A stretch of 64,000 nt of DNA from Dictyostelium discoideum (taxonomy: Eukaryota): positions 4,960,001 to 5,024,000 of the forward strand of contig CM000153.2 in NCBI GenBank assembly GCA_000004695.1, written 5' to 3'. This document shows, one piece after another, positions 6,020 through 40,625 of this stretch; the stretch's first letter is position 1, and each line of letters starts with the position of its first letter. The notes beneath the pieces were generated by a model. The model searched no databases. It saw nothing but the letters and a program-made list of their open reading frames with translations, and was not told the origin of the DNA. The position numbers and the translations under genes were made by a program.

Positions 6020-6089
6020 TTAATAGGTGGGAAAATCGAAATCAATAAATAAGTTTTGATCTATAATATTGTTTTCATCATCATTATCA

Positions 6090-6157
<68 letters not shown>

Positions 6158-7683
6158 TTTATAAATGTTTTGATTATTTTGATTTAAAATTAAAGAATCA
6201 ATATCATCATTAATTTTATTTTTATTATTTTCTTCTTTTCTCTCAATAAAATAACTTGTATCACAATCATTTTCAACAAATGGTTGAAAAACCAATACCT
6301 TTTGATCTTCATAAATTTTCCAATTAATTTCTGAAAAGAATGGATGACATTTAACTTCATCAACACCATTTGCACCTAATCTTACACTTGGATTTGGATC
6401 TAATAATTTTTCAATTAAATCAATTGCCACTGGGTATAGCTTTTTAGGAAAATAAAGTTTTTTTTTATGATTTGTAATTTTATTAAATATTATTCTTACA
6501 TTTTTTTCATCATTATCTGATTTTGGATTAATTGATTCATTTGGTTCATCTTCTTGAAATGGTGGATAACCAATTAAAAATTCATACAAAATGATTCCCA
6601 ATGACCACCAATCAATAGTTTTACCATATCCTTTACCCAAAATTACCTCTGGAGGAATATAATATGGAGTACCAAGAATCTTTTGATTTTCAGTAGTGTT
6701 ATTATTATTTGTGTTGTACAAAGTAAAAGAATTCTTTAAAATTTTAATATTACAACTTTCATCAACAAAATCAAATTTTGATAAACCAAAATCTGCTAAT
6801 TTAATATGACCATTTGAATCTATTAAGATATTATCTGGTTTTAAATCTCTATGAATTATACCATGGTTATGAAGATATTCTAAACATATTATTATTTGAG
6901 CAATAATATTCTTTGTTAAATCTTCAGGCATATTATTATTAAATGAACGTAATAATGATGCACAATCACCACCATTTAAAAATTCCATAACGAAAAAAAG
7001 TTTTTTATCAGTTTGAAATGAAGAAAATAATTCTACAATAAAATTACATTTATAATTTGACAAAATTGTTTTTTCAATATTAACTTGATCAACCATCATT
7101 TTTTTAATTGTATCACTTTTTTTTATTACTTTTATTGCTACTGTTTTTTTGGTTATTTTATTTTCTGCCAAATAAACCTTTCCAAATCCACCTTTTGAAA
7201 TCACTTTTAAAAAATTAAAATCATCTAATGGTGTAATTTTGGTTGAACATATTGAAATAATATCATGTGATAATGGTTTTACTTTTGGTTGAGATAAAAC
7301 TGGACTTTCAAATTTTGGTGATGATATTGAAAGGTCATTACTTTTTTTTATTTTATAATCTTGATAAAATTTATTTGAACAATTGGTATTAATGAATTGG
7401 TAATTTTCAATTTCACCATACTCTATAAACCTTTTTTTATTATTTATTTTTATATAAATAATTTTATATGTAACTACATTATCACTAAATAAATTTCAAT
7501 AATTAGTATTTTTTTTATTTTTTTTTTTTTATTTTTTTTTATTTTTTTAAATTAATAATGTAAAAAATAAAATAAAAAAATGAAATAAAATAAAAATTAA
7601 AACATACTCCAATTTTGAATAATAATCAGAAAAGTCATTTTTAAAATGTGGTAAATTTTTATTTATTATAAACATTTATATTT
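6020..7683 (-). CDS. AGC-family Ser/Thr protein kinase, MAST/Greatwall-like; model join(7683..7616,7430..6020)
   Basis: Kinase motifs are present: GGFGKVYLA (Gly loop), [29 protein letters not shown], a long insert before [28 protein letters not shown], and a C-terminal AGC tail with an FxxF-type hydrophobic motif. The minus-strand frame stays open upstream of the track start (…[23 protein letters not shown]) to a TGA near 7495 with no ATG. This implies a 5' exon. The proposed exon 1 runs from ATG 7683 to GA|GTATGT at 7615, and an intron of 185 nt ends ...AAAAAAAG at 7431, giving a phase-consistent join. Confidence 0.7.
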
Positions 7684-8884: not shown

Positions 8885-9788
8885 TTAGTTCAAAACATTT
8901 TTGATACTATGTTTTTGTCTGGAAAGTCTCTCTTTCTTTTCTTTATTCATGTAGTATAGTCCACATTCATTGCATAGGTCAACTACAACACCATTATCTG
9001 TACCTCTTCTCCAATATGGAGTTTCGGTTACTTTACAGACATAGCAATTTTCTGGAAATATCCTTGGTGGTCTTTCTTTTACCTTGCTTTCTTCTGTGAT
9101 ATCATCAGTGGTTGTAGTAGTACCGATAATATTGGAGTCAGTAGTAGTAATGGGAGTGGTGGTGGTGGTAATGGCAGTGCTAACATTTCCTTTTGTCTTG
9201 GTTTTGGAAATTCCTTTTGTTTTTGATGATGGTGGTTTAGAATCATTTGAATCCAATGGTGGAGTATTATCGACATTGTCTTCATCACTATCATCTTTGT
9301 CTTGATCATCTTTTTGATCATCTTCTTCATCATCACTACTATTCATATCAATTGGTTTGGAACGTACACCACGTGTTTTTGGTTTTGAAACTAAGGCGGA
9401 ATTATTATTTTTGGTAAGTGAATTGGAAGTGGTGGTAGTAGTAGTGGTAGTGTTAGTGGGAGTTGAAGTAGAAGTGGAAGCAGTGGAAAGAGCAACACTG
9501 GTATTAACAGGGTTAACTGATAATGAGGCAATGGCTGTGGTAATGGCGTTTTCATTGATTGTGTTTTGACTGGTATTAACACTATTAACTGGTAAAAGTA
9601 ATTCTGATGTATCGCTAGAATATTGTAATTCCAAACACTCTAGCTCAGCATTCAAACTGGCTTCAAGAGCATCAAATTCTTTCAATGTTACATGGAAGTC
9701 TTTTAGGAGCATTGGTAAATTCAACGCAAGAGTAGCATTTTCCAAAGCCAATTTAAGATGTCTATGAGCCTATATTTTAAATTATTTA

Positions 9789-10116: not shown

Positions 10117-10555
10117 TATAAAATTATAATGTGTGGATTCTATTTGGTGTTGGAGAAAAATAATTAGTGAAATAAAAAAAAAAAAAAAAAATTTATAAAA
10201 AAAAAAAATTTGAAATTATTTTAAGCTTTTTATATATTTTTTTTTTTTTTTTTTTTTTTTTTGTTCTTTTAAATGATTTCTTGGTAGGATATGGTATTTA
10301 TCCATTTTTGGAGTTTTAAATTAATGAAAAGAATAGTATTTGATTTAAAAAGAACCTTTTTACTATTTTTTGTTTTTGTCCTATTAAATTTAATGATATT
10401 TATCATTTTTTTTTGATTTTTTAGATTTTTTAGATTCATCTTTTTTTTATTTCTCAGATCATATTTTATTTTATTTTTATTTTTTATTTTTTATTTTTTT
10501 TTTCAATTTTCTTTTTTTTTTTTTTTTTCAAAAACCCAATTTTTTTTTTCCAAAC

Positions 10556-12004: not shown

Positions 12005-13040
12005 CAAAGATTGATTCTTATTTAAAGTTTTTTTTTTTTTTATTTTTAATCATTAAATAAAAAACATACAAATAAATAAATAAAAAAGTAAAAAAAAAAA
12101 AAAAAATTAAAATGAATTCAATTGAAAATAATAATAATAAAAATAATAATAAAAATAATAATAAGATTTGGTTAATCACAGGAACATCAAGTGGCATTGG
12201 TTTAGAATTAGTAAAGAAGTTGTTAACATATGGTTATAAAGTTTCAGCATTAACTCGTAGACCAGAAGAGATTGAAAAAGAGATTAAAGAAATTCAATTT
12301 GAAAAAGATAATTTATTAATTGTTAAAACTGATATTACAAATAATGAATCAGTAAAGAGTGCAGTAGAAGAGACTATTAAACAGTTTGGTAGAATTGATG
12401 TATTGGTGAATAATGCTGGTTATGGTTTGGTAGGTTCAATCGAAGAGTTATCAGATTCAGACGTTAGAAAGATATATGATGTAAATGTATTTGGTGTTTT
12501 AAATTTATTAAGAAATTCAACACCACATTTTAGAAAACAAAAATCAGGTTTAATAATTAACATATCCTCTCAAATGGGTTGGGATAATATGGAATATTAT
12601 TCAGCATATAGTTCAACTAAACATGCAGTTAATGCAATTACATTCTCTGCACAAAAAGAGTTAAAAGCATTTGGAGTGAATGTAATATTAGTTAGTCCAG
12701 GTGGATTTAGAACTGGTTTCGTTGCTGGTCAACAATCAAACTTTCAAGTACCTTCAAAATTTATTGATGAATATTCAACTCAATCATTCATTGAAATGTT
12801 TAATAAATATTCACCATATTCAAAAGGCGATCCTGAAAAAGCAGCTGAACTCTTAATTAAATTACCAACAATTGAAGAATTACCAAATAATTTATTCATT
12901 GGCTCTGATTCATTATCAGCTGCCAAACAACAATTACAATCACATTTATTAGAAGCTGAAAAATGGTCTGACCTTTCAATTTCAACTGATTACTAAAGAT
13001 ATTAAAAAAAATAAAATAAAATTAAATAAACCTTTTTTGT
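11870..13040 (+). repeat. Segmental duplication unit A (SDR gene plus ~240 bp 5' flank plus ~45 bp 3' flank)
   Basis: It is near-identical to 18346..19490 and inverted relative to 17100..18215. The coding sequence differs from copy C by about 2 nt. Confidence 0.8.
12112..12996 (+). CDS. Short-chain dehydrogenase/reductase (SDR), classical type, copy A
   Basis: The 294-aa ORF has the TGTSSGIGLE cofactor motif, NNAG, a catalytic YSSTKHAV (YxxxK) motif and an upstream Ser. It appears to be a single exon. Confidence 0.85.
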   Translation: MNSIENNNNKNNNKNNNKIWLITGTSSGIGLELVKKLLTYGYKVSALTRRPEEIEKEIKEIQFEKDNLLIVKTDITNNESVKSAVEETIKQFGRIDVLVNNAGYGLVGSIEELSDSDVRKIYDVNVFGVLNLLRNSTPHFRKQKSGLIINISSQMGWDNMEYYSAYSSTKHAVNAITFSAQKELKAFGVNVILVSPGGFRTGFVAGQQSNFQVPSKFIDEYSTQSFIEMFNKYSPYSKGDPEKAAELLIKLPTIEELPNNLFIGSDSLSAAKQQLQSHLLEAEKWSDLSISTDY

Positions 13041-17117: not shown

Positions 17118-18120
17118 TTTTAATAATCAGTTGAAATTGAAAGGTCATACCATTTTTCAGCTTCTAATAAATGTGATTGTAATTGTTGTTTGGCAGCTGA
17201 TAATGAATCAGAGCCAATGAATAAATTATTTGGTAATTCTTCAATTGTTGGTAATTTAATTAAGAGTTCAGCTGCTTTTTCAGGATCGCCTTTTGAATAT
17301 GGTGAGTGTTTATTAAACATTTCAATGAATGATTGAGTTGAGTATTCATCAATTAACTTTGAAGGTACTTGAAAGTTTGATTGTTGACCAGCAACGAAAC
17401 CAGTTCTAAATCCACCTGGACTAACTAATATTACATTCACTCCAAATGCTTTTAACTCTTTTTGTGCAGAGAATGTAATTGCATTAACTGCATGTTTAGT
17501 TGAACTATATGCTGAATAATATTCCATATTATCCCAACCCATTTGAGAGGATATGTTAATTATTAAACCTGATTTTTGTTTTCTAAAATGTGGTGTTGAA
17601 TTTCTTAATAAATTTAAAACACCAAATACATTTACATCATATATCTTTCTAACGTCTGAATCTGATAACTCTTCGATTGAACCTACTAAACCATAACCAG
17701 CATTATTTACTAACACATCAATTCTACCAAATTGTTTAATAGTCTCTTCTACTGCACTCTTTACTGATTCATTATTTGTAATATCAGTTTTAACAATTAA
17801 TAAATTATCTTTTTCAAATTGAATTTCTTTAATCTCTTTTTCAATTTCTTCTGGTCTACGAGTTAATGCTGAAACTTTATAACCATATGTTAATAACTTC
17901 TTTACTAATTCTAAACCAATGCCACTTGATGTTCCTGTGATTAACCAAATCTTTTTATTATTATTATTATTATTTCCAATTAAATCCATTTTAATTTATT
18001 TATTTTAATTTACTTTTTTATTTAAAAATTGAATATTTTTTATTTATTTGTTTATTTAATGTTTTTTATTTTAATGATTAAAAAAAAAAAAAAAAACTTT
18101 TAAATAAGAAACAATATATG

Positions 18121-18557: not shown

Positions 18558-19490
18558 ATGAATTCAATTGAAAATAATAATAATAAAAATAATAATAAAA
18601 ATAATAATAAGATTTGGTTAATCACAGGAACATCAAGTGGCATTGGTTTAGAATTAGTAAAGAAGTTGTTAACATATGGTTATAAAGTTTCAGCATTAAC
18701 TCGTAGACCAGAAGAGATTGAAAAAGAGATTAAAGAAATTCAATTTGAAAAAGATAATTTATTAATTGTTAAAACTGATATTACAAATAATGAATCAGTA
18801 AAGAGTGCAGTAGAAGAGACTATTAAACAATTTGGTAGAATTGATGTGTTGGTAAATAATGCTGGTTATGGTTTGGTAGGTTCAATCGAAGAGTTATCAG
18901 ATTCAGACGTTAGAAAGATATATGATGTAAATGTATTTGGTGTTTTAAATTTATTAAGAAATTCAACACCACATTTTAGAAAACAAAAATCAGGTTTAAT
19001 AATTAACATATCCTCTCAAATGGGTTGGGATAATATGGAATATTATTCAGCATATAGTTCAACTAAACATGCAGTTAATGCAATTACATTCTCTGCACAA
19101 AAAGAGTTAAAAGCATTTGGAGTGAATGTAATATTAGTTAGTCCAGGTGGATTTAGAACTGGTTTCGTTGCTGGTCAACAATCAAACTTTCAAGTACCTT
19201 CAAAATTTATTGATGAATATTCAACTCAATCATTCATTGAAATGTTTAATAAATATTCACCATATTCAAAAGGCGATCCTGAAAAAGCAGCTGAACTCTT
19301 AATTAAATTACCAACAATTGAAGAATTACCAAATAATTTATTCATTGGCTCTGATTCATTATCAGCTGCCAAACAACAATTACAATCACATTTATTAGAA
19401 GCTGAAAAATGGTATGACCTTTCAATTTCAACTGATTACTAAAGATATTAGAAAAATAAATAATAAAATTAAATAAACCTTTTTGTAAAT
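18346..19490 (+). repeat. Segmental duplication unit C
   Basis: It is a direct repeat of 11870..13040 and includes the upstream promoter-like motif. The flanks diverge at both ends. Confidence 0.8.
18558..19442 (+). CDS. Short-chain dehydrogenase/reductase, copy C
   Basis: The 294-aa ORF differs from copy A by one residue near the C-terminus (EKWYDLS versus EKWSDLS). Confidence 0.85.
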   Translation: MNSIENNNNKNNNKNNNKIWLITGTSSGIGLELVKKLLTYGYKVSALTRRPEEIEKEIKEIQFEKDNLLIVKTDITNNESVKSAVEETIKQFGRIDVLVNNAGYGLVGSIEELSDSDVRKIYDVNVFGVLNLLRNSTPHFRKQKSGLIINISSQMGWDNMEYYSAYSSTKHAVNAITFSAQKELKAFGVNVILVSPGGFRTGFVAGQQSNFQVPSKFIDEYSTQSFIEMFNKYSPYSKGDPEKAAELLIKLPTIEELPNNLFIGSDSLSAAKQQLQSHLLEAEKWYDLSISTDY

Positions 19491-22595: not shown

Positions 22596-25142
22596 TTAAT
22601 TTTCAAAAGTAATAAATAAATAATAGTAGATATAGAGAGAGAGAGATATCATAGGTATTTATAACTTACATTTAAATTGGAAAATTTGAGCAATAAAGTA
22701 TTGACCATCAACAGAGATACTGATATTGAATTTAGTATTGGAGTAGTTATATTTTAGCATTTCATCATAGTTGGTTACATTACAGGTTAAACTAGAATAA
22801 GTGTGAATGTTGATTTCAGGTTGTGTACATGGTTTACCATCGATTAGAATTTCAAGATTTGCATCACCAAATGATGTACCATATATAGTGATTAAAGCAG
22901 TTTGATCAATATCTGATGTATTTGTAATGGTTGGAGGAGCAAATGTATAGTTTGAATAACCAGTAATTGACGATTGGTAGACTTTTTCAGTGGCAGAATT
23001 TGAACTAGAGATTATTAATGGTTTAGAGCCAGATGTATAGTATGGTGAAAGCGATTTAAGATTTGGTAAAATTACACATTCAATGGTTGTTACATTGATT
23101 GAAGAGATATTACATGGTACTTTACCAATTGTAATGGTTGTAGTATCTTTGGTATAGTTAAAAAAGTAATGACCATTAATAGTAACCATTCCACCACCAC
23201 ATGGTACTGCAGGATTATTATTTTCAATAACAGGTTTCAAAGTGAATGGACCAGCCATATTACTAATTTGATCGCCAAGTTGGAATAGATAGCTTGCAGT
23301 GTTTTTATTTCCTGCTGGATATTGAAACGTAAGAAGATTATGACTACTTTCTACTACTGTACCATTTGCTCTACTGCCATCGAGATAAACAACAGTTATA
23401 ATTGAATTGCTAACGGATTCACCGAGATTATTGCCATTAATTTGAATAGTACCATCTTTTTCTTGATCACTTGATGCGAGGTATGGAGGATTGTAACTAA
23501 CGACGAACGAACCAACTGGTAAAAGATTATAGTAAACATTCATCGTGTGGCTTGAACCGAAACCAGATTTCAAAACACAGGTGAAGGATAAACCATCGCC
23601 ATCTTTCAATGGATCACAAATAGGACCGCCAGGCTCACTCTTAACTGTTAGTGGAACATCTCTACCATCAGAATCTACAGTTCTCATAAAGATACCACTG
23701 ATTATCAAATCACCACCAATTGTATTTGATTTGAAGCTTTGGCCAGCAGTAATGGTTGGAGTGATCTTGAAATTATATCTTGGAGATGTAAATGATTTAC
23801 TACCACCATCACCAACAATAAGATTCATAAAACCAGGTTGTGTATTATTTGGTAGGAATATGAAAATGGTATTATTACTTTCAATAAAAAATCCAGGTTC
23901 TTCTAAAGTTGGAGTAGGCTTTTTCAAAATATTAGTTTTAATATTCGCACCAGTAATTATTGTCATACTAATTACACCAGAGAAATATACACCAGATACA
24001 TTGAAAATCTGTGAAGTACCCCTTTGTGAAACACCTTGAATTAATGGAAGATCATATGATATTTTAATTGTATTTGTTGTGTATTTACCAATCTATATAA
24101 AAAACATCATTTTAAAAAAAGAATTAGTAATTTGATTGTTATGGTTTATATATTATGATTTACTTACAGTTACATTAAGAGGAACATCATAACCAGAACC
24201 ACCATATTCTGAACGACTTGGTATGGAACATATTACACTTTTTGAAGTACCAGCGAAACAACTAATAGGTTTACCACCAAAATGACCACTTATTGTAGTG
24301 CTTGGATTCACACTTAGATGGTCTCCTGTGAAAGTTAAATTACCACCATTATCATTAAGTACTCCTTCCATTACAGTGATTATTGGTAAAAATGTGTAAA
24401 GATAACTTTTATAAAATACATCACATATTGTTACATCAATGGTCCAGTTACCTTGATACTGTGATTCAGGTAATGAAAATACTATGGTGGAGTGAGTAGA
24501 ATCTAGGTTTCCAGTTGGGTTGAGGTTTTCAACGGGATCATTTGAATTAATTTTAATTTGGGTGTTGTAAAGGTTACTTCCTTGAATGGTAATATTTCCT
24601 TGGTCATCGATTGTTGGTTTATTTGGTATATCTCCAGTTTGATATGAAGCATTATAAATTACTCTTGAGCCTGAATTTATAATTAAATCTCCACAGCCTG
24701 GTTGTATTCTCATGGTGAACTGGTCTAAATTGATATTGTATGGTGTTACAATTTTGTTTGCTATATTCAAAGGTTTTATTCTACCATAAACACTTGTACA
24801 AGGATAGTTATATGTGAAATTAACGGATCCTCCTATTGTGGGGACAGATGGAAGGGATGGGATTTCTGGTAAAAAATAAATATCATAGGTATAATCACAA
24901 AGTCTATCCTTGTATGGAAAATTAACAACATCAAAATAAAACTTTCCATCAGTGTCCTTTTCCAGTGTTGCATCAGTTCTATTATTTGGATTTAAAAGAA
25001 TGGAAATAACTTGATCATCACATCGGATTTTGGTTATTTTTGTCTCCGGCCTTTCATTGTTTATTAGATAACAATCCGATTTAACAAATAAAAACCTATA
25101 AATAAAAATAAATAAAAAAATAGTTAAATGTTTTAATTTCAT
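22216..25142 (-). CDS. Tgr (tiger) family IPT/TIG-repeat type-I membrane glycoprotein with ~75-aa cytoplasmic tail (tgrB-like); model join(25142..24168,24092..22670,22556..22216), ~912 aa
   Basis: It starts with signal peptide MKLKHLTIFLFIFIYRFLFVKSDC. Introns run from GTAAGT at 24167 to ATAG at 24093 (75 nt) and from GTAAGT at 22669 to AAAG at 22557 (113 nt), both phase-consistent. IPT/TIG-like repeats such as ITIYGTSFGD...IDGKPC are present. The last exon encodes a TM helix IGIVAIIIFLALIFFAI followed by a tail rich in R/K/E. Confidence 0.75.
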
Positions 25143-25656: not shown

Positions 25657-28428
25657 ATGATTCATAAAATGTATTTTTTTTTAATACTTTTATTTTCATT
25701 ATTTATTATAGTTTATTCGGCACCAAATCGTAAGTAAATTTAAATTTTTCCAAACATATTATCATTTTGCTTTTTGTTATTTCAAATTAATTAACATGTT
25801 AATTTTATATTAGGGGTAACCAGAAATGAAACTTCTATAGTATATACCTATTCCCTTGATAGTGATTATTATACTCGTTTTGTTATGTATCTAAATGCTA
25901 CTACCTTAAGAACTGATATAGCTCCAAATTATTTTGATTGCAGCCAAATTGTCAACTCAGAGAGATATTGTGTATTCCATTTTGCTGATTCATTTTCAAG
26001 ATTATGGGGAGCCGTTTACAGTAGAGTCTGTACAAGAACAGTATCTGACCCAACGGAGGATTGTCAAAGTACTTGGATCACTGATAATGCTTTTCCAGAA
26101 CCCCTCAATGTAAAATTTAGTGGATATCCAAGTACGTCTGGAGGTGATGTTGTTTTTACTGGCCTTTTTTTAAGATTGGCTGGAGGTCCTAATACTCTTG
26201 CAAATTCTTTTACTAACCCTTCAAAAACCTTTCTTATTAAAGTTCATGGTAATTTCTCTGATCCAAATTTTAATTGTAATAATTTCACTGCAACATTTCC
26301 ACCAAGTTCTGGGTATATCAAGGTATATTTTGATGACACTGGAAAGAGTTCTCTTCAATTACGATATGCTTCACCAACTGTATCAAGTTTTATTCTTGAT
26401 GAATCAAAAAAATTAGTAACAATAAATGGTGATAACTATTTCACAAAGAATTCCTTAGTTCAAGTTTTTTTTGATGGTATTATTCAAAACAATATTAATA
26501 TTACAGTGAATCATTCACAAATTCAAGTGAATAACTTTATTAGAGTTGATCCTGGTCCAATGTCTGTCAATATTACTATAAACGCTGTTTCAATTGATAA
26601 TAATTATACTTATTGTTTCCCAGCAGTGATATCATCAATCTCATCGGTTTCAAATCATTTAGGTGGTGTTGTAACTATTAAAGGTTCAAAGCTATCTTCA
26701 ACTTCAATTATTCCAACAATTAAAATTGGTGATAAACAATGTACATTTATTAAATCAACAACAACTGAATTAGAATGTCAATTAGAACCAAATGAAACTG
26801 GTGGTAAACATTTACCAGTTGATGTTAATTTCGGTGGTTGTAATTCAACAAGTTCTGGTAGTGATGCTGTAACCTTTACATATAGTATTCCAACGCTATC
26901 AAGTGGAACATTATCAAATGGTATAGTTACATTAATTGGTACAAATCTTGGTACAATTAATGATTCATTCATTCAATTAAACTCCAATGGAGCTATTGAC
27001 AATGTAAAGAATGATCAATTTAATATATCATCCGATGAAACTACTGCTACATTTAAATTACCACTATTAAAATGTAAATCATTTTATATTAATTTCACTC
27101 GTGTTGATATTTCAGCAAATAATAAACCTTCAATTTCAGCACCATTATTAATATATGTAATCAATAAACCTACAGTATCAAATGGATCAATAAATATTGA
27201 ATTATATTATATTGATTGTCCAATCAGTCCATCATCAACACCAAGTATTACTGTGGGTAATTCATCATCAGCTACTCAATGCTCAATACCATCATTAAAA
27301 AATTTATCAGAATACTATCAAACAACATGTTCAATACCATATGGTACTGGTACAAATAAACAATTCAAATTCAAATATAATTCAGAGGAAAGTAATAGTG
27401 AATTCTCATATGAACCACCAAAAGTTGAATCACGTTCATTCTCCAAAGGTCTATTTAATATTACAATTAATGGTAATAATTTTGGTAACTCAACATCATT
27501 GATTAAAGTTTATTTCAATGGTAGTGATATTTCATCAGAAATTCAATCATTAAATGATAATCAATTTACATTTAAAAGATTAAATTCATATGAAAATGGC
27601 CCAATTAATATTACTGTAGATGGCAATAGTAATATGGAGCCATCGTTTTATTTAACATTACCACCTGTTATTTATTCTATAATAAATAAAGAAAATAAAA
27701 CAATTGGTTGTGGTGGTCTAATCACAATTTCTGGTAAGAATTTATTAACAAGTGATGATAAATTCAAAGTTAGAGTATTAGCAAATAATGAAAATACTAC
27801 TGTAATAGTTCCCGATGAAAAAACATTAATTGTAAGAGCTAATAATAAAGATAGTCCACTCTTTGTTTCAACATTAATTGGAGATGATTTGGGTCCAAAT
27901 ACAACATTAACATATTTTGAACCAAGAATCACAGTTATTCCAACAGTTAAAAATAAAAAAGATGGTATTTCAATAAGAGTGGGTGGTGTTAGTTTATCAG
28001 GTATTATAAATGCAAGTTTAGGAATTTCATCAGAAAATGTTTCTCTTTCATGTGATTTACAATGTAGTTTATCTCCAAATGAAACATTTTATTTAAGTAA
28101 TCCAATACTAAGTTCAAATGAAAAAGATATAACAAATAGTACTGATTGTTTATCATGTCATTCAATGAATTCAATTGTTGTTGATGAAACATCAGGAGTA
28201 TTATATCTCCAATTAGGCCCAACATCATATCATTATGATGTTAAAATCGAAGAAATTCAATCATCATTAAATCCATCATCATCAAATGGTGGTGAAAGAA
28301 AATCATCAAAACTATCAGGTGGTGCAATTGCTGGTATTACAATTGGTTGTGTTGCTGGTGCTGGTGCTTTAGTTGGTTCTGTCTTTTATTTTAAATTAAT
28401 CACTCGTGTTAAAAAAGCATTCAATTAA
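25657..28428 (+). CDS. Tgr family IPT/TIG-repeat type-I membrane glycoprotein with very short (~11 aa) cytoplasmic tail (tgrC-like); model join(25657..25729,25814..28428), ~895 aa
   Basis: Exon 1 encodes signal peptide M(IHKM)[19 protein letters not shown], then GTAAGT at 25730. The intron is 84 nt and ends TATTAG at 25813, in phase 1 with exon 2. Several TIG domains are present ([31 protein letters not shown]). The C-terminal TM is [22 protein letters not shown], followed by [11 protein letters not shown]. Confidence 0.75.
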
Positions 28429-29051
28429 TATTTTAATAATAGTATTTGATGGTGTAAATTACAAATTGGGATCCAAATTACAGTAGATCATACACAAATT
28501 CAAGTGAATAACTTTAATTACACTGGAAAATATTAATTTAATGTATTATAAAAAATATTCATAACATTTATAACTGTATCTTATTAATTATTAATAATCA
28601 TTTTATGAAAAAAAAAAAAAAAAAAATAGTAATTTTAATATTAATTTAATAAACTATTTATTAAATACCAATAATAAAAATTATAAATTTGATTTTATTT
28701 TATTATAAATTTTATTTCACACAATTTAATAAATATTTATTACATTCATTTGAAAGTGTATTTAAAATTTTAAATTTAATGAACAATTTGCTTGATAATC
28801 TATTTCATTACTAGTTTATAAACTCGGTGAATCTGGTTCCAAACTATGACCTTTTCAACTTCTTTTTTAGTTTATGAACTACTATCAAGACCACTGCTTT
28901 GACTATCGATATCAAAGATTTCATTATCCTATATATATGATTGGAGCTTTTTTGGTCGAACCAAAAATAAAGAAGATGTTGTAGTTGATGTACTTATTGA
29001 TGATTGTTGTTCATTATTAATATTTATAGTATTAGTTGATGATAATACAAA

Positions 29052-29157
<106 letters not shown>

Positions 29158-29749
29158 CTATTTAATATACTGCAATGGTATATTAAATTATTGAGTTGAT
29201 TATTATTATTATTATTATTATTTTCTATTTGATGTTGTTTTAGATTTTAAATAATTTCATTTTTATCGGTTAATTATAATTTCAATTCCACTCCTAAGTA
29301 ACTCTTTTCTTATGTCTCAGTGTGCATTGGTCAATAGCATTCAAATTATACCTAAAAAAAAAAAAAAAATTTAATTTTTTTTTTCATTTTATTTTTCATT
29401 TTTTTTTTTTTTTTCATTTTTTTTTTTCAAAAAATAATTTAAATTAAGTATAGATAAATAGAGCACTCAAATACACAAAATGATATAAAAATCAAAAAAA
29501 ATAAATGTAATCATTCTGTTTTTTGAATTTTTTTTTATTTTTTAAATCAAAAATTTTATTTTTAGAATTTAATTATTTATATAAAAAAATAATGCTTTTA
29601 TTGATGATAACATTCAAATTAGACACAAAAAAAAAAAAAAAAAAAAAAAAAATTTCCCCAATTTAAATTTAATAAAAATAAGAAAAAAAAAAAAAAATTT
29701 TTTGCAACTTACACAAAATCATAGTTCACATCAAAGAGTGTTTGAAAAA

Positions 29750-30009
29750 AAAAATTTTTAAAATTTTAATTTTTAAAATTTTAATTTTTAAAATTTTAAT
29801 TTCTTTTAAAAAAGAATACTTTTGAACAGACATTACATTCCATTTGGGTTTCAAATTTATAAAAAAAAAAAAAAAATAAAAAAATAATAATCAAAATTGA
29901 AAACAAAAAAAAAATATCTTTTGATATTTTTTTTTTTTTTTTTATAAATTTTGAAACCGAAATGGAATGAAATGTCTTTTAAAAAAGAATACTTTTGAAC
30001 AGACATTCA
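29750..30009. repeat. Composite repeat: 13-bp tandem (ttttaaaattttaattt x4) followed by a ~200-bp palindromic unit
   Basis: The A block (aaaaaagaatacttttgaacagacatt) occurs directly at 29806..29832 and 29981..30007. The B block 29833..29856 (acattccatttgggtttcaaattt) is the reverse complement of 29948..29977. Confidence 0.7.
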
Positions 30010-30018
30010 GAACTTTTT

Positions 30019-30074
<56 letters not shown>

Positions 30075-30192
30075 CGATATAAAATAAAATAAAATAAAAT
30101 AAAAAAAAATAAAATAAAATAAAATAACACAACCAAATAAATAAAAAAAGAAAAAAAAAAAAAATACAACTTAAATAGATACTAATAAAAAA

Positions 30193-30906
30193 ATGAAATT
30201 ATTATTTATTTTATTAATTTTAACAATAACTATTAAAAATTGTTTATCAATTAATATAAACGATAATAATAATCAAATTATAAATTTAAAAATAAACGAT
30301 ACATCCTATTCAATGGTACCATATCAAGATGAAGCATGTGCTAATTTGGAAGAAAGTATTGGTTTTACATTCCCAAGTTCACCATCAAAAGTAAAAGAGG
30401 TAATGACAGTTTTTGGTCAATTTAATAATAATTTCTGTGTAGTGATTTCAAATGATGGTTCAGGTACATTTGAGATTGAATGGTATATCGATCAAGATTG
30501 TTCAAACATCGCACCAAAATCAAAACCATATTCAACTGAACAATATCAAATTGGGAAATGTTTATACTCAAGTACAATGGGTTCATACTATACTCTAACT
30601 GAGACCGATCAAGTCCAATTCGATGAAAACACATTAATCATTCAAGATACCATCAAACAAGATAATAGTAAATGTAATTCAGTTAGAGAGGGTTATTATA
30701 GTTTTGTTAAAAACTCTACTCAATTCCAAGAAATGAGAGGCTGGGTGACCTTTACTGATACTTATTATTGTACTGACAATTTACAACCATTTTGTTATTC
30801 TTGTTCCGATGAGGGTTGTAATCAACTTTATTTAGAACAAACTTGTGTTCAACAAGATAACTTTAATATTAAATGTTTTGGTTCATCATCATCTTCTTCT
30901 TTCTAA
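30193..30906 (+). CDS. Secreted Cys-rich protein (237 aa), uncharacterised
   Basis: It has a signal peptide MKLLFILLILTITIKNCLS, 18 Cys and a Ser tail. It is a single exon. Confidence 0.6.
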   Translation: MKLLFILLILTITIKNCLSININDNNNQIINLKINDTSYSMVPYQDEACANLEESIGFTFPSSPSKVKEVMTVFGQFNNNFCVVISNDGSGTFEIEWYIDQDCSNIAPKSKPYSTEQYQIGKCLYSSTMGSYYTLTETDQVQFDENTLIIQDTIKQDNSKCNSVREGYYSFVKNSTQFQEMRGWVTFTDTYYCTDNLQPFCYSCSDEGCNQLYLEQTCVQQDNFNIKCFGSSSSSSF

Positions 30907-31078
30907 ATTTTAATAAAATTATTAAAAAATAAAAAAAAATAAATAAACAATAATTAAAAAATTTATATATATTCATAAATTTTATCTTATGACTCTAAAT
31001 GAAAAAAAAAAAAAAAAAAAAAAAAATATTAAAAAAAAAAAAAAATAAACTATAATACTTTTAAAACAAATTTAATTT

Positions 31079-31122
<44 letters not shown>

Positions 31123-32544
31123 GTTTATTAAAGGTGAAGTAATTGTTGGAGTTGAGGTTTGAGAATTTATATTTTGTTGTGAGATTTGATTTTGTGAATT
31201 TGTTGAATTAAAGGAGGTTGATGGTAGAATTGTTGGGCTGACCTCATAAGAGGTGGTAGCATTGGTGGCGGTATTTGATGATTTGGAACATTTACGGTTC
31301 TTAATTCATTGCAAAACATTTGAATATCTTTCTCTAGTACAGATTGGATTCAGTGAATCCAAATAAAATAATTCCAATACACAATCATTTATAAAACAAG
31401 TTAATAGTTTCATTTTAGACAACACATTGGTTTGAATTTAATGAACTATATAGAAATCTTATTTTGTATATTACAACCAACAATAATCTTTATTTTTTTA
31501 CTTTTTATTTTTTATTTTTTTATTTATTTATTTTTATTTTTATTTTTATTTTTATTTTTAATTTTAATTATAATTTACATAATAAATCTCTTTTTATCTT
31601 GTCAAATGCTAATGTTGATTGTAGTGAAGTGGAATGACACTATTATTAACACAACCTCTATTATTATGAATATTACTACTACTACTACTACTACTCCTAC
31701 TACTACTACTAATATCCTGATGTTATTGAGGTAATTTTAGATATTTATTGAAATATTTTGATTGTTGATAATTCTTTTTCATGTTTCCTTGGTAGTTCTT
31801 TGATTTATGGGTCAAAGGAACTGATATCATTCTCTTGTTAATTTGGTTTTTATAAATTCTCTTTAATTGGTATTGGTGGTTGTCTGGTGTTATTTTTGTT
31901 GTTGTAGTGTTTTTTTGGTGAAGAGGAAGGTGTAGAAGATTTATCATTATTAGGATTTGGTTATCAATCTTAAGGTTGATTATTTTTTAAATTAGAGTAA
32001 TTTGTTGTTATTGTTATTGTATTACTTTATTGATTAATATTATAAAGTGAAGTGGTAATCCGTAATTATATATTAGTAATAGTTTTGTAATAAGTCATGG
32101 TGTGATGATAGGGATCTTTGGGTGTGTGAGGTGGTGGTGAAATCCTTTGTTAATGGTACTGGTGATGAAATTGGGTGAAAAAAGATCAATTGGATGGTTG
32201 ATTATTGAATTGATTTAGAGTTGGTTGATGATTTGGTTGGGTTTGACATAGTAAACTATATATTGGTTTGATATTGGTTGGATTCAAATTGTTTAAAAAA
32301 AAAAAAAAAAAAATAATAAAAATAAAAAAAAAGTTTTGTTGGCCTAAAGTTGGAGATTTAAAAATGAAAAGAAAAATTTTATTATCATATGATAATGAAT
32401 TAATTATTTTATAATAATTTTGTGTAACTATTTGGTAAAAAATGTTTATTTATTTATTTTTTTATTTTTTTATTATTTTTTTTTTTCCTTCTTATTTATT
32501 TATTTTATTTTTTTTTTTTTATAAAAAAAAAGATTATTTAACTT

Positions 32545-34267
<1,723 letters not shown>

Positions 34268-34530
34268 TTTTACTTTTGTGTAAAAAAAATTTTATTTAAA
34301 AAAAAATAAATAAAATAAAAAAAATAAAAAGGTAAATAATAATAATTTTATGATTAGTGTAAAATTAAAAAATGGTATATTTAGATTTAAATTAATTTTA
34401 AATAAATACCAAAAAAAAAATTAAATTTACTAATGTATAAATATATAATATGATTTGTTTTAGATGTACAAATTTATGAATAAAAAAAAAAATAAAAAAA
34501 TAAATCATTGTACAGTGTAACACATAAAAA

Positions 34531-34563
<33 letters not shown>

Positions 34564-35252
34564 CTATTTCCTAACACCTAATACACCCATTTTTACAAAT
34601 TAACACAAAAAAAATGTATATAATATATTTATATATTCATATTTAAAAAAATTGCTTCCAATAAAAAATTACCAAACCAATAAAAGCTCATTCTCTAAAA
34701 AAACACCACCAGATTTCAAAAAAAAAAAAAAAAAAAAAAAAAAAAACAAAACAGTTTGGAATTATTTGAGGGTTAATTATTTTTATTATAGTTGTTCATT
34801 GTTTTATTTTCATTTATGTCTAGATTTTCAATATTATTATTTTTATTATTAAAAAAAAAAAATAAAAAAAAATAAAAAAAATGAGTTATAACTTGGTTTT
34901 TTTTTTTTTCAAAATACAAAAATCAATCATCATAACAATTATGGGGTTAGATTAAAAAAAATTATTTAATGTGGGTGTGAATTTTTATAATAATATAACA
35001 AACCTACACAAAAACTTGGTGGTGAAAGTGGTAAAAATAAAATAATCATAATTGTGTTTTTATATTCTTTTGATTTAATTTATTTTTATTTTTTTTTATT
35101 TTTTTTTTTAATGTTGAGTAGGTTACATCACTTTTTCAAACATCATTCACACCCAAATATATATATATATATATATAGTATAAAGGAAACAAATTAATTC
35201 AGAATGCCACAAAAAAAAAAAAATAAAAAAAAAAAAAAATAAAAAAAAAAAA

Positions 35253-35283
<31 letters not shown>

Positions 35284-35289
35284 AGGTAA

Positions 35290-35590
35290 TTAGAAAAGAA
35301 TTGTCCAATGTTAATTCTCTGTTATCCCAATCACCGACAATTTCGAACATGATTTCTATGTTGTACATTTATTAGATCAACAACAACAACAACAACTACT
35401 ACACAACTGAATTAGAATGTCAATTAGATCCAAATTAATGTGTTTGTAATTTAATTACAACCAGTAAACAGGTTCTGGTTTAATATTCCCGAATAATATT
35501 CTAACATTATCAAGTCAATCATATTCAAATAGTACCGTTGCATTAATTTAAAACCAATGGTTACTGTTATTCTCCAACCATTAAAAACAA
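35290..35590 (+). pseudogene. Degenerate fragment of a tgrC-like IPT-domain coding sequence (homologous to ~26690..26960)
   Basis: 35397..35434 matches 26754..26791 at 30/31 nt (acaactgaattagaatgtcaattaga(a/t)ccaaat). Flanking similarity is gapped and decayed. It has no ORF and stops in all frames. Confidence 0.65.
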
Positions 35591-36052
35591 TTAATAAAAG
35601 AAAAAAAATTAAATAAATAAAACAAAATGAATAAAAAATTTAAATTATAATTAATTTATGAATAAATTTATTTAAAGAGTTTTGATTGTGATATTGGATA
35701 TTGTAGTGGGTATTACTGTTTAAAAATTTTAAAAAAAAAAAAAAATAAAAATAATTACTTAAAATATCAATTTACTATATCACTAAAAAATTAATAGTAA
35801 TTTTATTTTATTAATTACCTTTTTAATTTTTATTTTATTTTTAAAATAAATATATACACATATGTATTTTATTTTATTATAGGTAATTATTATAGGTAAT
35901 TATTATTATTATAATTTTGTTTTTTTATTTTTATTTATTTATTTATTTATTTATTTGTATAAAATTTTTATAAAATATAAATTTTCTTTTTTTTTTTATT
36001 ATTTATTACTTATTATTATTTATTATTTATTATTTCTTTATTTTTTTTTTTA

Positions 36053-36460
<408 letters not shown>

Positions 36461-36819
36461 TTACTATTTTTATTACTATTATTACTATTATAATTATAAA
36501 TAAATATCAATATTATAGTATTTATGAATATTGAATTATTCAAATAATTTGTATTATTTGCAAAGGTGATGTTTTGAAACAGAAAAAAAAAAAAAAAAAT
36601 TAAAAACAAAAATAAAAATAAAAAAAAAAATAAAATAATTTTTTTATTTTTTTTTTTTTATTTTTTTTTTCGACTTAGGAGCTATTCTGTCGTGGTTTTA
36701 AAAAAAACCCTATTTCATTAACTGACAAAACGGTTTTTTATTTGAAATCACTGATTGATATGAGTAACAAAATATCAGAAAAAAAAAAAATCGTCGTTTG
36801 ACACAATTTTTCAAAAATA

Positions 36820-36856
<37 letters not shown>

Positions 36857-36971
36857 TTTAATCAAAACCCGAAATTTATTTTGGTTTTTTTTTTTTTTTT
36901 TTTTTTTTTTTATTAATTTATTATTGTGTGCGTTTTAAAATAAGACAACCAAAAACCAAAAAAGAAAAAAG

Positions 36972-37762
36972 ATGGCAACAAACAAATTTGTATTTTTATT
37001 TTTATTTTTTATAATTGTTATTGTTACTGTGACAAGTTCAAATAATATAATAAAAGTTATTGATAGCAGTGATAGTAATAGTGATAGTGATAGCGATAGT
37101 AATAGTGGTAGTAGTAATAGTAAATATAATTTTATATCATCTACAATTACAAGTTTAGAATTATCAAAAGTTTGTCCAAATGAAGATTCAATAGATTATT
37201 ATCGTATTGGTGAATGCATTGATGGATATATGTACAATTGTGACATTGAAAACCAAAATGTATTGGTCAGTAGTTTTGGCGATTTCGAATGTTCAATTCT
37301 AAATACAACTACCACTTTTCCAATTGGTTGTTCATCAAATTCAAATTTAACCTCCTATTATAATTGTGTTGAAGAGATAACTCCAACACCATTATCTTAT
37401 ATTATCACTACTTTTGGTGCTCGTCAATGTGATAAAACTCAAATAATTCACCAAAGATTTGTAAAATTAGGTAAATTTTAAAAATTAAATATAGATTTTC
37501 AAAAAAAAAAAAAAAAAGAAAAAAAAAAAAAAAAAGTGTGTATCTAACTTTTTATTATTATTTTTGTTTTATTATTACTATAGATAATTGTGGATCATCT
37601 ATGTATCCAATAATATATGGATCATGTAATTCAACTTATTATTCTTACACCTATTATAATACAACAACTTGTGAAACACCTATTTATGAAATGGCAGATG
37701 TTTTAAATGTTTGTGTAGAATCTGACATATTCAATCAATCATATTTATCTCAATGTATATAA
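36972..37762 (+). CDS. Secreted Ser/Asp-rich, Cys-rich protein; model join(36972..37470,37584..37762)
   Basis: It has a signal/anchor MATNKFVFLFLFFIIVIVTVTSS and an (SDSN)n tract. Exon 1 ends TTAG|GTAAAT at 37471. The intron ends CTATAG at 37583 in phase 1. Exon 2 is DNCGSSMYPIIYGSCNST...SQCI. Confidence 0.6.
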
Positions 37763-39347: not shown

Positions 39348-40625
39348 AAGTGACCAAAGCAATCAAAACTTCAAGTATCCACAAATCTCCAGGTTTAGAC
39401 GGTATCAATGCACTATTCTACAAGTACCACATCAACTCAATAGCAAGAATATTGACTATAGCTTTCAACGACCTCCTCACAAATAAGAAAGAAATCCCCA
39501 CAAAATTCAAAGAAGGAGTAATAACAACAATATTCAAAAAAGGAGATGAACTAAACATTTCAAATAGAAGACCAATCACCCTTCTCAATACAGATTACAA
39601 AATTTTAAGCAAAATTCTCAACAGTAGATTATTAGATATCACCAGTAAAATTATCAACAAATTTCAAAACGGCTTTGTTCCAAACAGGTTCATCCAAGAC
39701 AATATTCAGATCATGAAGGAAGTAATAGAAATAAGTAACAAAAGAAAGAACAATACACTCATTACCTTTTACGATTTTAACAAAGCATTCGATTCAATCA
39801 GCCACAAGAGTATCACAAGAACATTAGAGCATATTGGTATCCCCCCAAAATTCACAGCGATCCTACTAAACCTACTCAAAGATACTAAAAACAAAATAAA
39901 GATCAACGACTTTTTAGTCAATGGAATAACAATCAGAAGAGGAACAAAACAAGGAGACCCAATATCACCAACAATCTTAGCTCTAGTTTTAGAACCACTT
40001 CTAATAGATATCATCAATGATAATCAATCAAGAGANNNNNNNNNNNNNNNNNNNNNNNNNNNNNNNNNNNNNNNNNNNNNNNNNNNNNNNNNNNNNNNNN
40101 NNNNNNNNNNNNNNNNNNNNNNNNNNNNNNNNNNNTAAAAAATTTAATACAATTGAATAATAAAAATATAACCGTTTAACAAACACCGCCGAAAAGACAC
40201 AAGGACATTCATTCCTTGAAGGTCTGATCACAGGTAAAAAAAAAAAAAAAAATAATCATAATATATCTAAAATTTAAAAAAAAAAAAAAATCCACAGATG
40301 GTCAATGGATACCTTAGACATATCAAAATACAACAGAACTGAGAGAATCTTCCCCAATCTCATAGGAATAATAGCACACCAATTATGGAAGATAATCTGT
40401 CACAAATTGTTCAACACTGATGAAAGCAAACCAGAGCCAAAATTCGAACAAAAGGTCATAGAAACAGAATTACTAAATCTCATCGAAACTGAAAAATTCA
40501 TCACACTAAAGAAAATCAAACACGACGAAGCAATACTAAAACACCAATCAAGATCTTCACAAATACAAATTCAACAAAGCCTGGCAAACCCCAGCAGCTC
40601 CGAACCCTCTTCCAATTTAAGTAGT

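Follow-up and report, generated by a model that had tools for sequence, protein, structure and literature searches.

The tgrD1/tgrE1 locus

The sequence analysed here (the window) is a stretch of 64,000 nucleotides of the Dictyostelium discoideum genome, with a G+C content of 21%. It contains two divergently oriented genes of the tgr (Tiger) family:

25657..28428, plus strand: intact tgrD1, with exon 1 from 25657 to about 25731, a short intron, and exon 2 extending to the stop codon at 28428
22659..25142, minus strand: divergent TIG-domain partner gene of the tgrE1 type, in two ORFs split by an intron, with a Pfam TIG domain in both

The plus-strand ORF at 25885-28428 harbors Pfam TIG and Ig_TgrO1 domains; over 847 aa, its product shows 100% identity to the nr entry "tgrD1 [Dictyostelium discoideum]" (P0001, 895 aa). 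The earlier note on this DNA had described the gene as "tgrC-like", which is appropriate at the level of the tgrC/D/K clade, to which tgrD1 belongs (PMC12745789); the gene itself is tgrD1. The partner is called as a single gene of 908-913 aa at the orthologous position in two other genomes (L001 and L002, see below), and the literature, in which tgrD1 and tgrE1 form an isolated pair in head-to-head arrangement "without nearby duplicates" (bioRxiv 10.1101/2025.10.22.684067), indicates that it is tgrE1. The tgrD1 segment at 26600-27000 is strongly polymorphic, with 91-94% nucleotide identity among D. discoideum strains, about as far apart as the cryptic species. The window allele of tgrD1 lacks 9 nt (three codons, "NSS") found in every other allele and paralog.

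Upstream of the tgrE1/tgrD1 pair, the window carries a Pkinase gene (6020-7204, minus strand) and a GATA zinc-finger gene (8885-9751, minus strand). The same gene types also flank tgrB/C-type pairs in three other sampled segments (L006, L007 and L008), which hints that the tgrE1/tgrD1 locus descends from a tgrBC-like unit.

A tgr-derived fragment downstream of tgrD1

Between the start of a minus-strand gene (32545-34267; called as 489 aa in L001 and referred to here as the 489-aa gene) and the stop codon of a glyoxalase/VOC gene, likewise on the minus strand (36053-36442), we identified a relic of a tgr gene at 35286-35585 on the plus strand, colinear in gapped alignments with 26671-26985 of the intact tgrD1. 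It is located 6.9 kb downstream of tgrD1 and in the same orientation, on the upstream side of the 489-aa gene, about 1 kb from its start. The features of the relic are as follows:

35286..35585, plus strand: the full relic, a tgrC/D/K-type pseudogene fragment delimited by gapped alignments, its left edge meeting a poly(A) tract
35362..35548, plus strand: the statistically robust homologous core (nhmmer family DNA profile, E = 4.1e-21, profile positions 928-1125; colinear tblastn matches in two frames)
35403..35435, plus strand: the near-identical core, which encodes an 11-residue family motif (26 nt exact; 32/33 to the window tgrD1)
35378..35407, plus strand: a (CAA)n/(ACT)n microsatellite (TRF, period 3, 10.3 copies; alignments)
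35211..35278, plus strand: a poly(A) tract of 68 nt, the left border of the relic (TRF)

Towards its ends, the relic is alignable at only ~60-70%, over about 75 nt at the left end and about 35 nt at the right. The whole corresponds to residues ~263-367 of the tgrD1 ORF, i.e., some 105 codons of one exon, and spans the last two-thirds of the TIG domain (Pfam, residues 248-333) together with the first third of the Ig_TgrO1 domain that follows (336-404). The view that this DNA is a fragment of the IPT/TIG part of a tgrC-type gene, lying about 7 kb from an intact family member, is thus borne out, and its TIG/IPT and Ig_TgrO1 homology places the relic in the tgrC/D/K clade as a pseudogene fragment. 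Searches of the 64-kb window with a full-length nhmmer profile and with tblastn, using 59 family proteins, gave no other pieces of tgr genes beyond 35286-35585.

The coding capacity of the relic has been lost. Compared to the gene, the microsatellite represents a net frame-shifting insertion of 20 nt, grown from poly-Thr codons; a premature TAA (35436-35438, read from the sequence) directly follows the near-identical core on its 3' side; and deletions of approximately 22, 9 and 14 nt are evident. The longest ORFs that overlap the relic region measure 24-30 aa, and none exceeds 30 aa. The description of its flanks as gapped, decayed (~70% identity outside the core) and devoid of an ORF therefore holds.

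Several other assignments were considered and rejected. A functional tgr gene is incompatible with about 105 codons, a 20-nt insertion, a TAA, deletions and a longest ORF of 30 aa. A head-to-head partner of the tgrB/E/J type was not found beside the relic: its neighbours are the 489-aa gene, which has no Pfam match, and the glyoxalase/VOC gene, and TIG homology in the window outside tgrD1 is confined to 22659-25142. A processed (retrotransposed) pseudogene was dismissed, as the poly(A) tract lies at the 5' side of this plus-strand fragment and the 3' flank is ordinary A-rich intergenic DNA. No direct repeats indicative of a target-site duplication were noted at the relic; the intron criterion is inapplicable to a fragment contained within one exon.

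Reality of the similarity

In a genome of 21% G+C, and in a region that holds poly(A), (TA)n and (CAA)n tracts, a similarity might arise by chance or from low complexity, and BLAST E-values are optimistic at such a base composition. Indeed, one BLAST match of the region (35525-35652 versus 10214-10343, minus strand, E = 1e-7) is truly A-rich low-complexity sequence and was dismissed. The match to tgrD1 behaves differently. With DUST on, blastn of 35200-35700 against the window retains three colinear HSPs to tgrD1 (E = 5e-11, 4e-6 and 4e-6), such that masking, which the earlier note had named as the way to refute it, does not abolish it:

HSP 1: 35362-35387 versus 26740-26765, 25/26 identical (blastn, DUST on)
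HSP 2: 35403-35449 versus 26761-26807, 87% identical (blastn, DUST on)
HSP 3: 35493-35548 versus 26882-26937, 77% identical (blastn, DUST on)

The gapped local score is 96.5, compared to 54.8 +/- 5.5 (maximum 78) in 300 dinucleotide shuffles, a z of about 7.6. When 372 real 320-nt windows were scored against the gene, the one with the relic ranked first (88; mean 47.3, sd 7.7, next best 68.5). A family DNA profile was built from 11 tgrC/D/K-type genes (nhmmer), and 35362-35548 is its only strong match in the window outside the tgr genes; this composition-corrected search still returns E = 4e-21. At the protein level, more than 50 Tgr proteins match colinearly by tblastn in two different frames, at 35403-35435 and 35459-35548. 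The similarity is real and reflects homology; the controls refute an artefact of base composition, a reading that retains practically no probability.

The longest exact match is 26 nt (35403-35428 = 26761-26786) and extends to 32/33 over 35403-35435. The near-identity previously given for the core (30/31) is essentially right. The 38-mer to which it had been assigned in the gene (26754..26791) is only 31/38 identical when aligned without gaps, because the 20-nt (CAA)n/(ACT)n insertion sits just to the left of the core.

Orthologous loci in other genomes

The orthologous locus was taken from five other assemblies by way of the neighbouring genes, and the relic is present at the orthologous site in four of them:

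L003 (GCA_054883475.1): relic practically identical to that of the window (99.5%)
L004 and L005 (two other D. discoideum isolates): relic at the same site, ~90% identical, with a 67-bp deletion
L001 ("D. cf. discoideum"): relic with the same borders, ~81% identical
L002 (second "cf. discoideum"): tgrD1/E1, a 475-aa gene and the glyoxalase gene present, relic block absent

The segments of the window that are missing elsewhere are:

35414..35480, plus strand: 67-bp segment deleted in the L004 and L005 relics (multiple alignment, abutting BLAST HSPs; boundaries ambiguous by 2 nt)
35168..35843, no strand assigned: block that holds the relic and is without counterpart in L002, where ~56 bp are found (blastn of window 28400-37600, alignment stops at 35167 and resumes at 35844)

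The decay of the relic is lineage-specific. The deletion in L004 and L005 takes out most of the near-identical core. The L001 relic keeps about 25 nt that are gone from the window relic, and its microsatellite has expanded by some 48 further nt at the same site; the ~70 nt of (ACT)n/(CAA)n at L001 19460-19520 represent growth of a triplet repeat from former poly-Thr codons in non-coding DNA. An insertion of ~82 bp at window 35665-35745 ("...TTTAAAGAGTTTTGATTGTGATATTGGATATTGTAGTGGGTATTACTG...") occurs only in the window and L003 and is absent from L004, L005 and L001.

Since the relic occupies the same site with the same borders in L001, it is older than the split of D. discoideum from this cryptic sister species. 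Distances at two adjacent coding segments are 2.8% between the window and L001, 4.2% between the window and L002 and 6.4% between the window and D. citrinum. L002 is accordingly the more distant lineage (4.2% versus 2.8%), and its lack of the relic fits equally well an insertion after the L002 lineage had split off or a deletion in L002; the informative sites are too few for parsimony to separate the two (2, 1 and 0). At the equivalent junction, L002, which is without the relic, also carries a poly(A) run.

D. citrinum (L010) and D. dimigraforme (L011) share the gene order of the window on the right side of the glyoxalase gene, with ComC-like genes among others, and this synteny breaks off exactly at the glyoxalase stop codon. 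None of tgrD/E, the CfaA-like gene, the 489-aa gene or the relic is present beside the glyoxalase gene in these two species, whose state is therefore compatible both with an older origin of the relic and with a younger one. At about position 10390 of L010/L011 (window ~36050), an unrelated gene of 549-590 aa and an epimerase gene replace the tgrE1-tgrD1-CfaA-like-489aa block.

Relationship to tgrD1 and other paralogs

The parentage of the relic was assessed by comparing its four copies with 14 gene segments of 345-351 nt each, composed of five tgrD1 alleles and nine other paralog segments (L006-L009). Every copy of the relic is 62-70% identical (raw) to each of the 14 sampled segments. As an unbiased proxy for the ancestral relic, we used the columns in which the discoideum and L001 relics agree; these are 71-73% identical to the tgrD1 alleles, 71-74.5% to the four-gene cluster of L009, and 68-71% to the tgrC-like genes. 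The gene segments are 82-88% identical among themselves, and the relic is farther from every paralog. Among the sampled segments, no column is fully diagnostic for tgrD1. In neighbor-joining trees, the relics are monophyletic and branch deeply on a long branch, as sister to the L009 cluster in 154/300 bootstrap replicates (51%) and to tgrD1 in 73/300 (24%). Two local states of the relic ("TGTACATTT" and "TGTCAATTAGA") are tgrD1-like.

The derivation of the fragment from the neighbouring gene is therefore not supported: all 14 sampled segments lie at nearly the same distance from the relic, and the bootstrap values are 51% for the other cluster and 24% for tgrD1. For the same near-equal distance, past duplication activity at this very locus, which the fragment had been taken to document, is unproven. 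Moreover, the relic retains 9 nt (AATTCNTCN) that the window's own tgrD1 allele lacks, and a recent origin from that allele is thereby excluded with certainty. A back-of-envelope estimate on poorly alignable DNA suggests that the relic is some three times as old as the discoideum/L001 split, an age close to that of the C/D/K radiation.

Further partial or disrupted copies of tgrC/D/K type occur at L007 703-1047 and at L008 492-632 and 18815-18937 (strain GCA_054859385.1); one of them is interrupted by an in-frame stop, while two consist of short pieces from the same TIG-domain region.

Sequence constraint, decay and possible functions

We compared the relic with its intergenic flanks in three genomes; percent identities between the window and L004, L005 and L001, respectively, are:

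Relic: 90.0, 90.8 and 80.7
Left-flank intergenic DNA: 94.3, 96.1 and 91.0
Right-flank intergenic DNA: 93.5, 95.6 and 80.3

The relic is thus without constraint, evolving as fast as the flanking intergenic DNA or faster. The deletions that different lineages have undergone independently, and the disappearance of the core from two strains, also speak for a lack of constraint. Long blocks of perfect conservation occur at window 34268-35150, in the non-coding DNA upstream of the 489-aa gene; this region is 94-96% identical among strains and 91% identical to L001, is better conserved than the relic, and is probably promoter or regulatory sequence.

The near-identical core calls for a separate account. 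It matches the tgrD1 alleles of L001, L002, L004 and L005 at 33/33 positions and the paralog L009_14596 at 32/33, and its sole mismatch to the window tgrD1 (GAA versus GAT) is a derived change in the window tgrD1 allele. The core is still near-identical because the motif is conserved in the family at the nucleotide level and the relic of the AX4 lineage happens to be unhit there. Divergence is nonetheless uneven along the relic: judged by eye, identity to the inferred ancestral gene sequence exceeds 90% in three blocks (~140 nt) and is ~50-70% elsewhere, and an unbroken run of 33 nt would be rare under a uniform divergence of 28%. Some old patchy event may lie behind this unevenness, whether a short tract converted in the relic or templated repair that was patchy when the relic arose, and to that extent it counts against the explanation favored below.

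Two ways in which the relic could still serve the genome were weighed against these data. It might have been exapted, either as a regulatory element of the 489-aa gene, the relic lying ~1 kb upstream of its start, or as an antisense or small RNA directed against the TTELECQL-coding stretch of tgr mRNAs, given the perfect match of 26-33 nt to the tgrD1 mRNA. An element of either kind is very hard to reconcile with a sequence that is less conserved than the adjacent non-coding DNA, that has lost its core in two strains and is missing as a whole block in L002, and that gives neither a structural nor an Rfam signal: the one Rfam match to the relic (E = 0.14) is far under the gathering score, and there is no excess of RNA folding on either strand (z = -0.15 and -0.70). 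We consider this reading highly improbable.

The other possibility, put forward in the earlier note, is that such relics act as silent donor cassettes: ectopic gene conversion would copy short tracts from them into tgrD1 or further genes of the tgrC/D/K clade and so add to allelic diversity. The idea is not absurd in the tgr family. A "fragment reservoir" model has been proposed for tgrB/C, in which partial tgrB/C fragments near the tgrBC locus may recombine into the expressed genes (PMC12745789), and signatures of interlocus conversion among tgrB paralogs have been reported (PMC12745789; bioRxiv 10.1101/2025.10.22.684067). At the present locus, the perfectly matching patch of 26-33 nt in the AX4 lineage, the polymorphism of the tgrD1 alleles in the homologous segment, and a single site at which the L001 relic and the window tgrD1 allele both read "AAACATTT" and the other alleles "AAAAATTT" would be in keeping with it. 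The comparison of relic and tgrD1 across four genomes (six genome pairs), however, gave 0 concerted sites and 2 that run in the opposite direction, and the only mismatch within the core arose because the gene departed from the state seen in the relic. The core is deleted in two of the three sampled D. discoideum lineages (L004 and L005), the block is absent from L002, the longest exact match is 26 nt, and the relic is a single fragment rather than part of an array. Outside the core, identity is only ~70% with many indels, far under what homologous recombination normally tolerates. The relic therefore lacks the traits of a donor cassette and is a poor candidate for one; its role in conversion is unsupported and, in our estimation, highly improbable.

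Origin of the fragment

Taken together with the data on decay and constraint, the relic is very probably an ancient pseudogene fragment of ~300 bp from the tgrC/D/K clade, non-functional and drifting neutrally. As reconstructed from sequence comparison, either part of a single exon or an entire gene copy that deletions eroded afterwards would have come to lie between the glyoxalase/VOC and 489-aa genes, earlier than the divergence of D. discoideum from one of its cryptic sister species. Slippage of triplet repeats then expanded the poly-Thr codons and broke the frame, point changes produced stops, and several deletions arose independently in different lineages. We infer this mode of origin, and likewise that the age of the relic is comparable to that of the C/D/K radiation. 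Pseudogenes and partial fragments of tgr genes have been reported to be abundant in these genomes (PMC12745789; bioRxiv 10.1101/2025.10.22.684067).

A more specific scenario concerns only the origin of the fragment; it is compatible with a neutrally decaying pseudogene fragment and leaves the functional verdict unchanged. The relic could mark the edge of a segmental duplication or translocation by which the tgrE1-tgrD1 locus came into being in the discoideum clade; it would then be the stub of a second tgrC-type gene brought along from a tgrBC-like array, and not a local duplicate of tgrD1 made later. Synteny with L010 and L011 ends at the glyoxalase gene, right beside the relic, and the tgrD/E block is absent there; tgrD/E orthologs are restricted to the discoideum clade (PNAS paper). 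The relic is no closer to tgrD1 than to the other paralogs, the Pkinase and GATA genes of the window resemble the flanks of the tgrB/C-type pairs in L006-L008, and such arrays often hold another tgrC-type gene a few kb farther downstream (L008, L009). Against this, the relic is an internal piece of 300 bp with no other gene remnants at its sides, and it is absent from L002, even though tgrD1/E1 is present there. Alternatively, the fragment may postdate the formation of the locus, either as an inserted short piece of a tgrC/D/K gene or as a full copy that decayed where it stood. We thus regard the founding-segment scenario as tentative, with the balance against it. That the relic is a true breakpoint fossil, i.e., all that remains of a second tgrC-type gene carried in with the segment founding the tgrE1-tgrD1 locus, is a speculative and rather improbable proposition. 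If it were correct, the relic would date and orient the founding rearrangement, and the "isolated" tgrD1/E1 pair would have been born from a tgrBC-like array together with spare fragments, the proposed raw material for allele diversification.

Comparison with known pseudogenes and donor cassettes

The closest counterparts of the relic, as a neutrally decaying pseudogene fragment, are the known tgr pseudogenes and partial tgrB/tgrC fragments (26 pseudogenes in AX4), which belong to the same family and clade and share the same birth-and-death dynamics. Like the relic, they are non-coding partial copies with stops and indels, in a state that varies among strains. In contrast to the fragments of the tgrBC locus, the relic has no paired partner of the tgrB/E/J type, and it adjoins tgrD1/tgrE1, the pair described as isolated and without nearby duplicates (bioRxiv 10.1101/2025.10.22.684067). 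It is also much smaller (~300 bp, one-ninth of the gene) and more decayed than the truncated tgr genes reported previously (PMC12745789; bioRxiv 10.1101/2025.10.22.684067).

The chicken pseudo-V genes, Neisseria pilS and the trypanosome VSG pseudogenes resemble the relic in that each is an unexpressed partial copy of a polymorphic surface-protein gene near the expressed copy. Unlike these silent donor cassettes, the relic is a single copy, ~70% identical with frequent indels outside the patch of 26-33 nt; no transferred tract was detected for it, and it is dispensable in other strains. With non-processed pseudogene fragments in general, it shares the character of a genomic copy of part of an exon that decays neutrally in the orientation of the nearby family member. 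No flanking duplicated non-coding sequence was identified at the relic, which may thus have arisen through insertion by templated repair instead of duplication.

The relic adds a small and probably unannotated fragment to a family already known for its abundant pseudogenes and partial copies, and by itself it carries little weight. It slightly qualifies the statement that tgrD1/tgrE1 lack nearby duplicates, and it gives no support to the idea that such fragments fuel tgr polymorphism. It also provides a clean example of neutral decay in the intergenic DNA of Dictyostelium (~10% divergence between strains, ~19% to the cryptic species) and could serve as a local neutral yardstick for selection on the neighbouring polymorphic tgrD1 alleles.

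Additional features of the window

The large exon of the 489-aa gene (32545-33714, minus strand) has no Pfam match and gives weak tblastn matches to some Tgr proteins (~20% identity over 350 aa, E ~3e-6). This similarity is probably compositional (Ser/Thr/Asn-rich) and not a sign of homology. A run of 100 N at 40036-40135 is an assembly gap.

The glyoxalase/VOC protein (36053-36442, minus strand) consists of 129 aa. Its Dictyostelium orthologs are 88-96% identical, followed by VOC proteins of Acinetobacter and other bacteria at 70-74%; the gene is also found in D. purpureum. Judging from these matches, it looks like an old transfer of a bacterial gene into the dictyostelids. Three near-identical ORFs of the adh_short (short-chain dehydrogenase) family occur at 12112-12996 (plus strand), 17120-17989 (minus strand) and 18558-19442 (plus strand), one of them inverted, and on the basis of their near-identity they appear to be the product of a recent local duplication.
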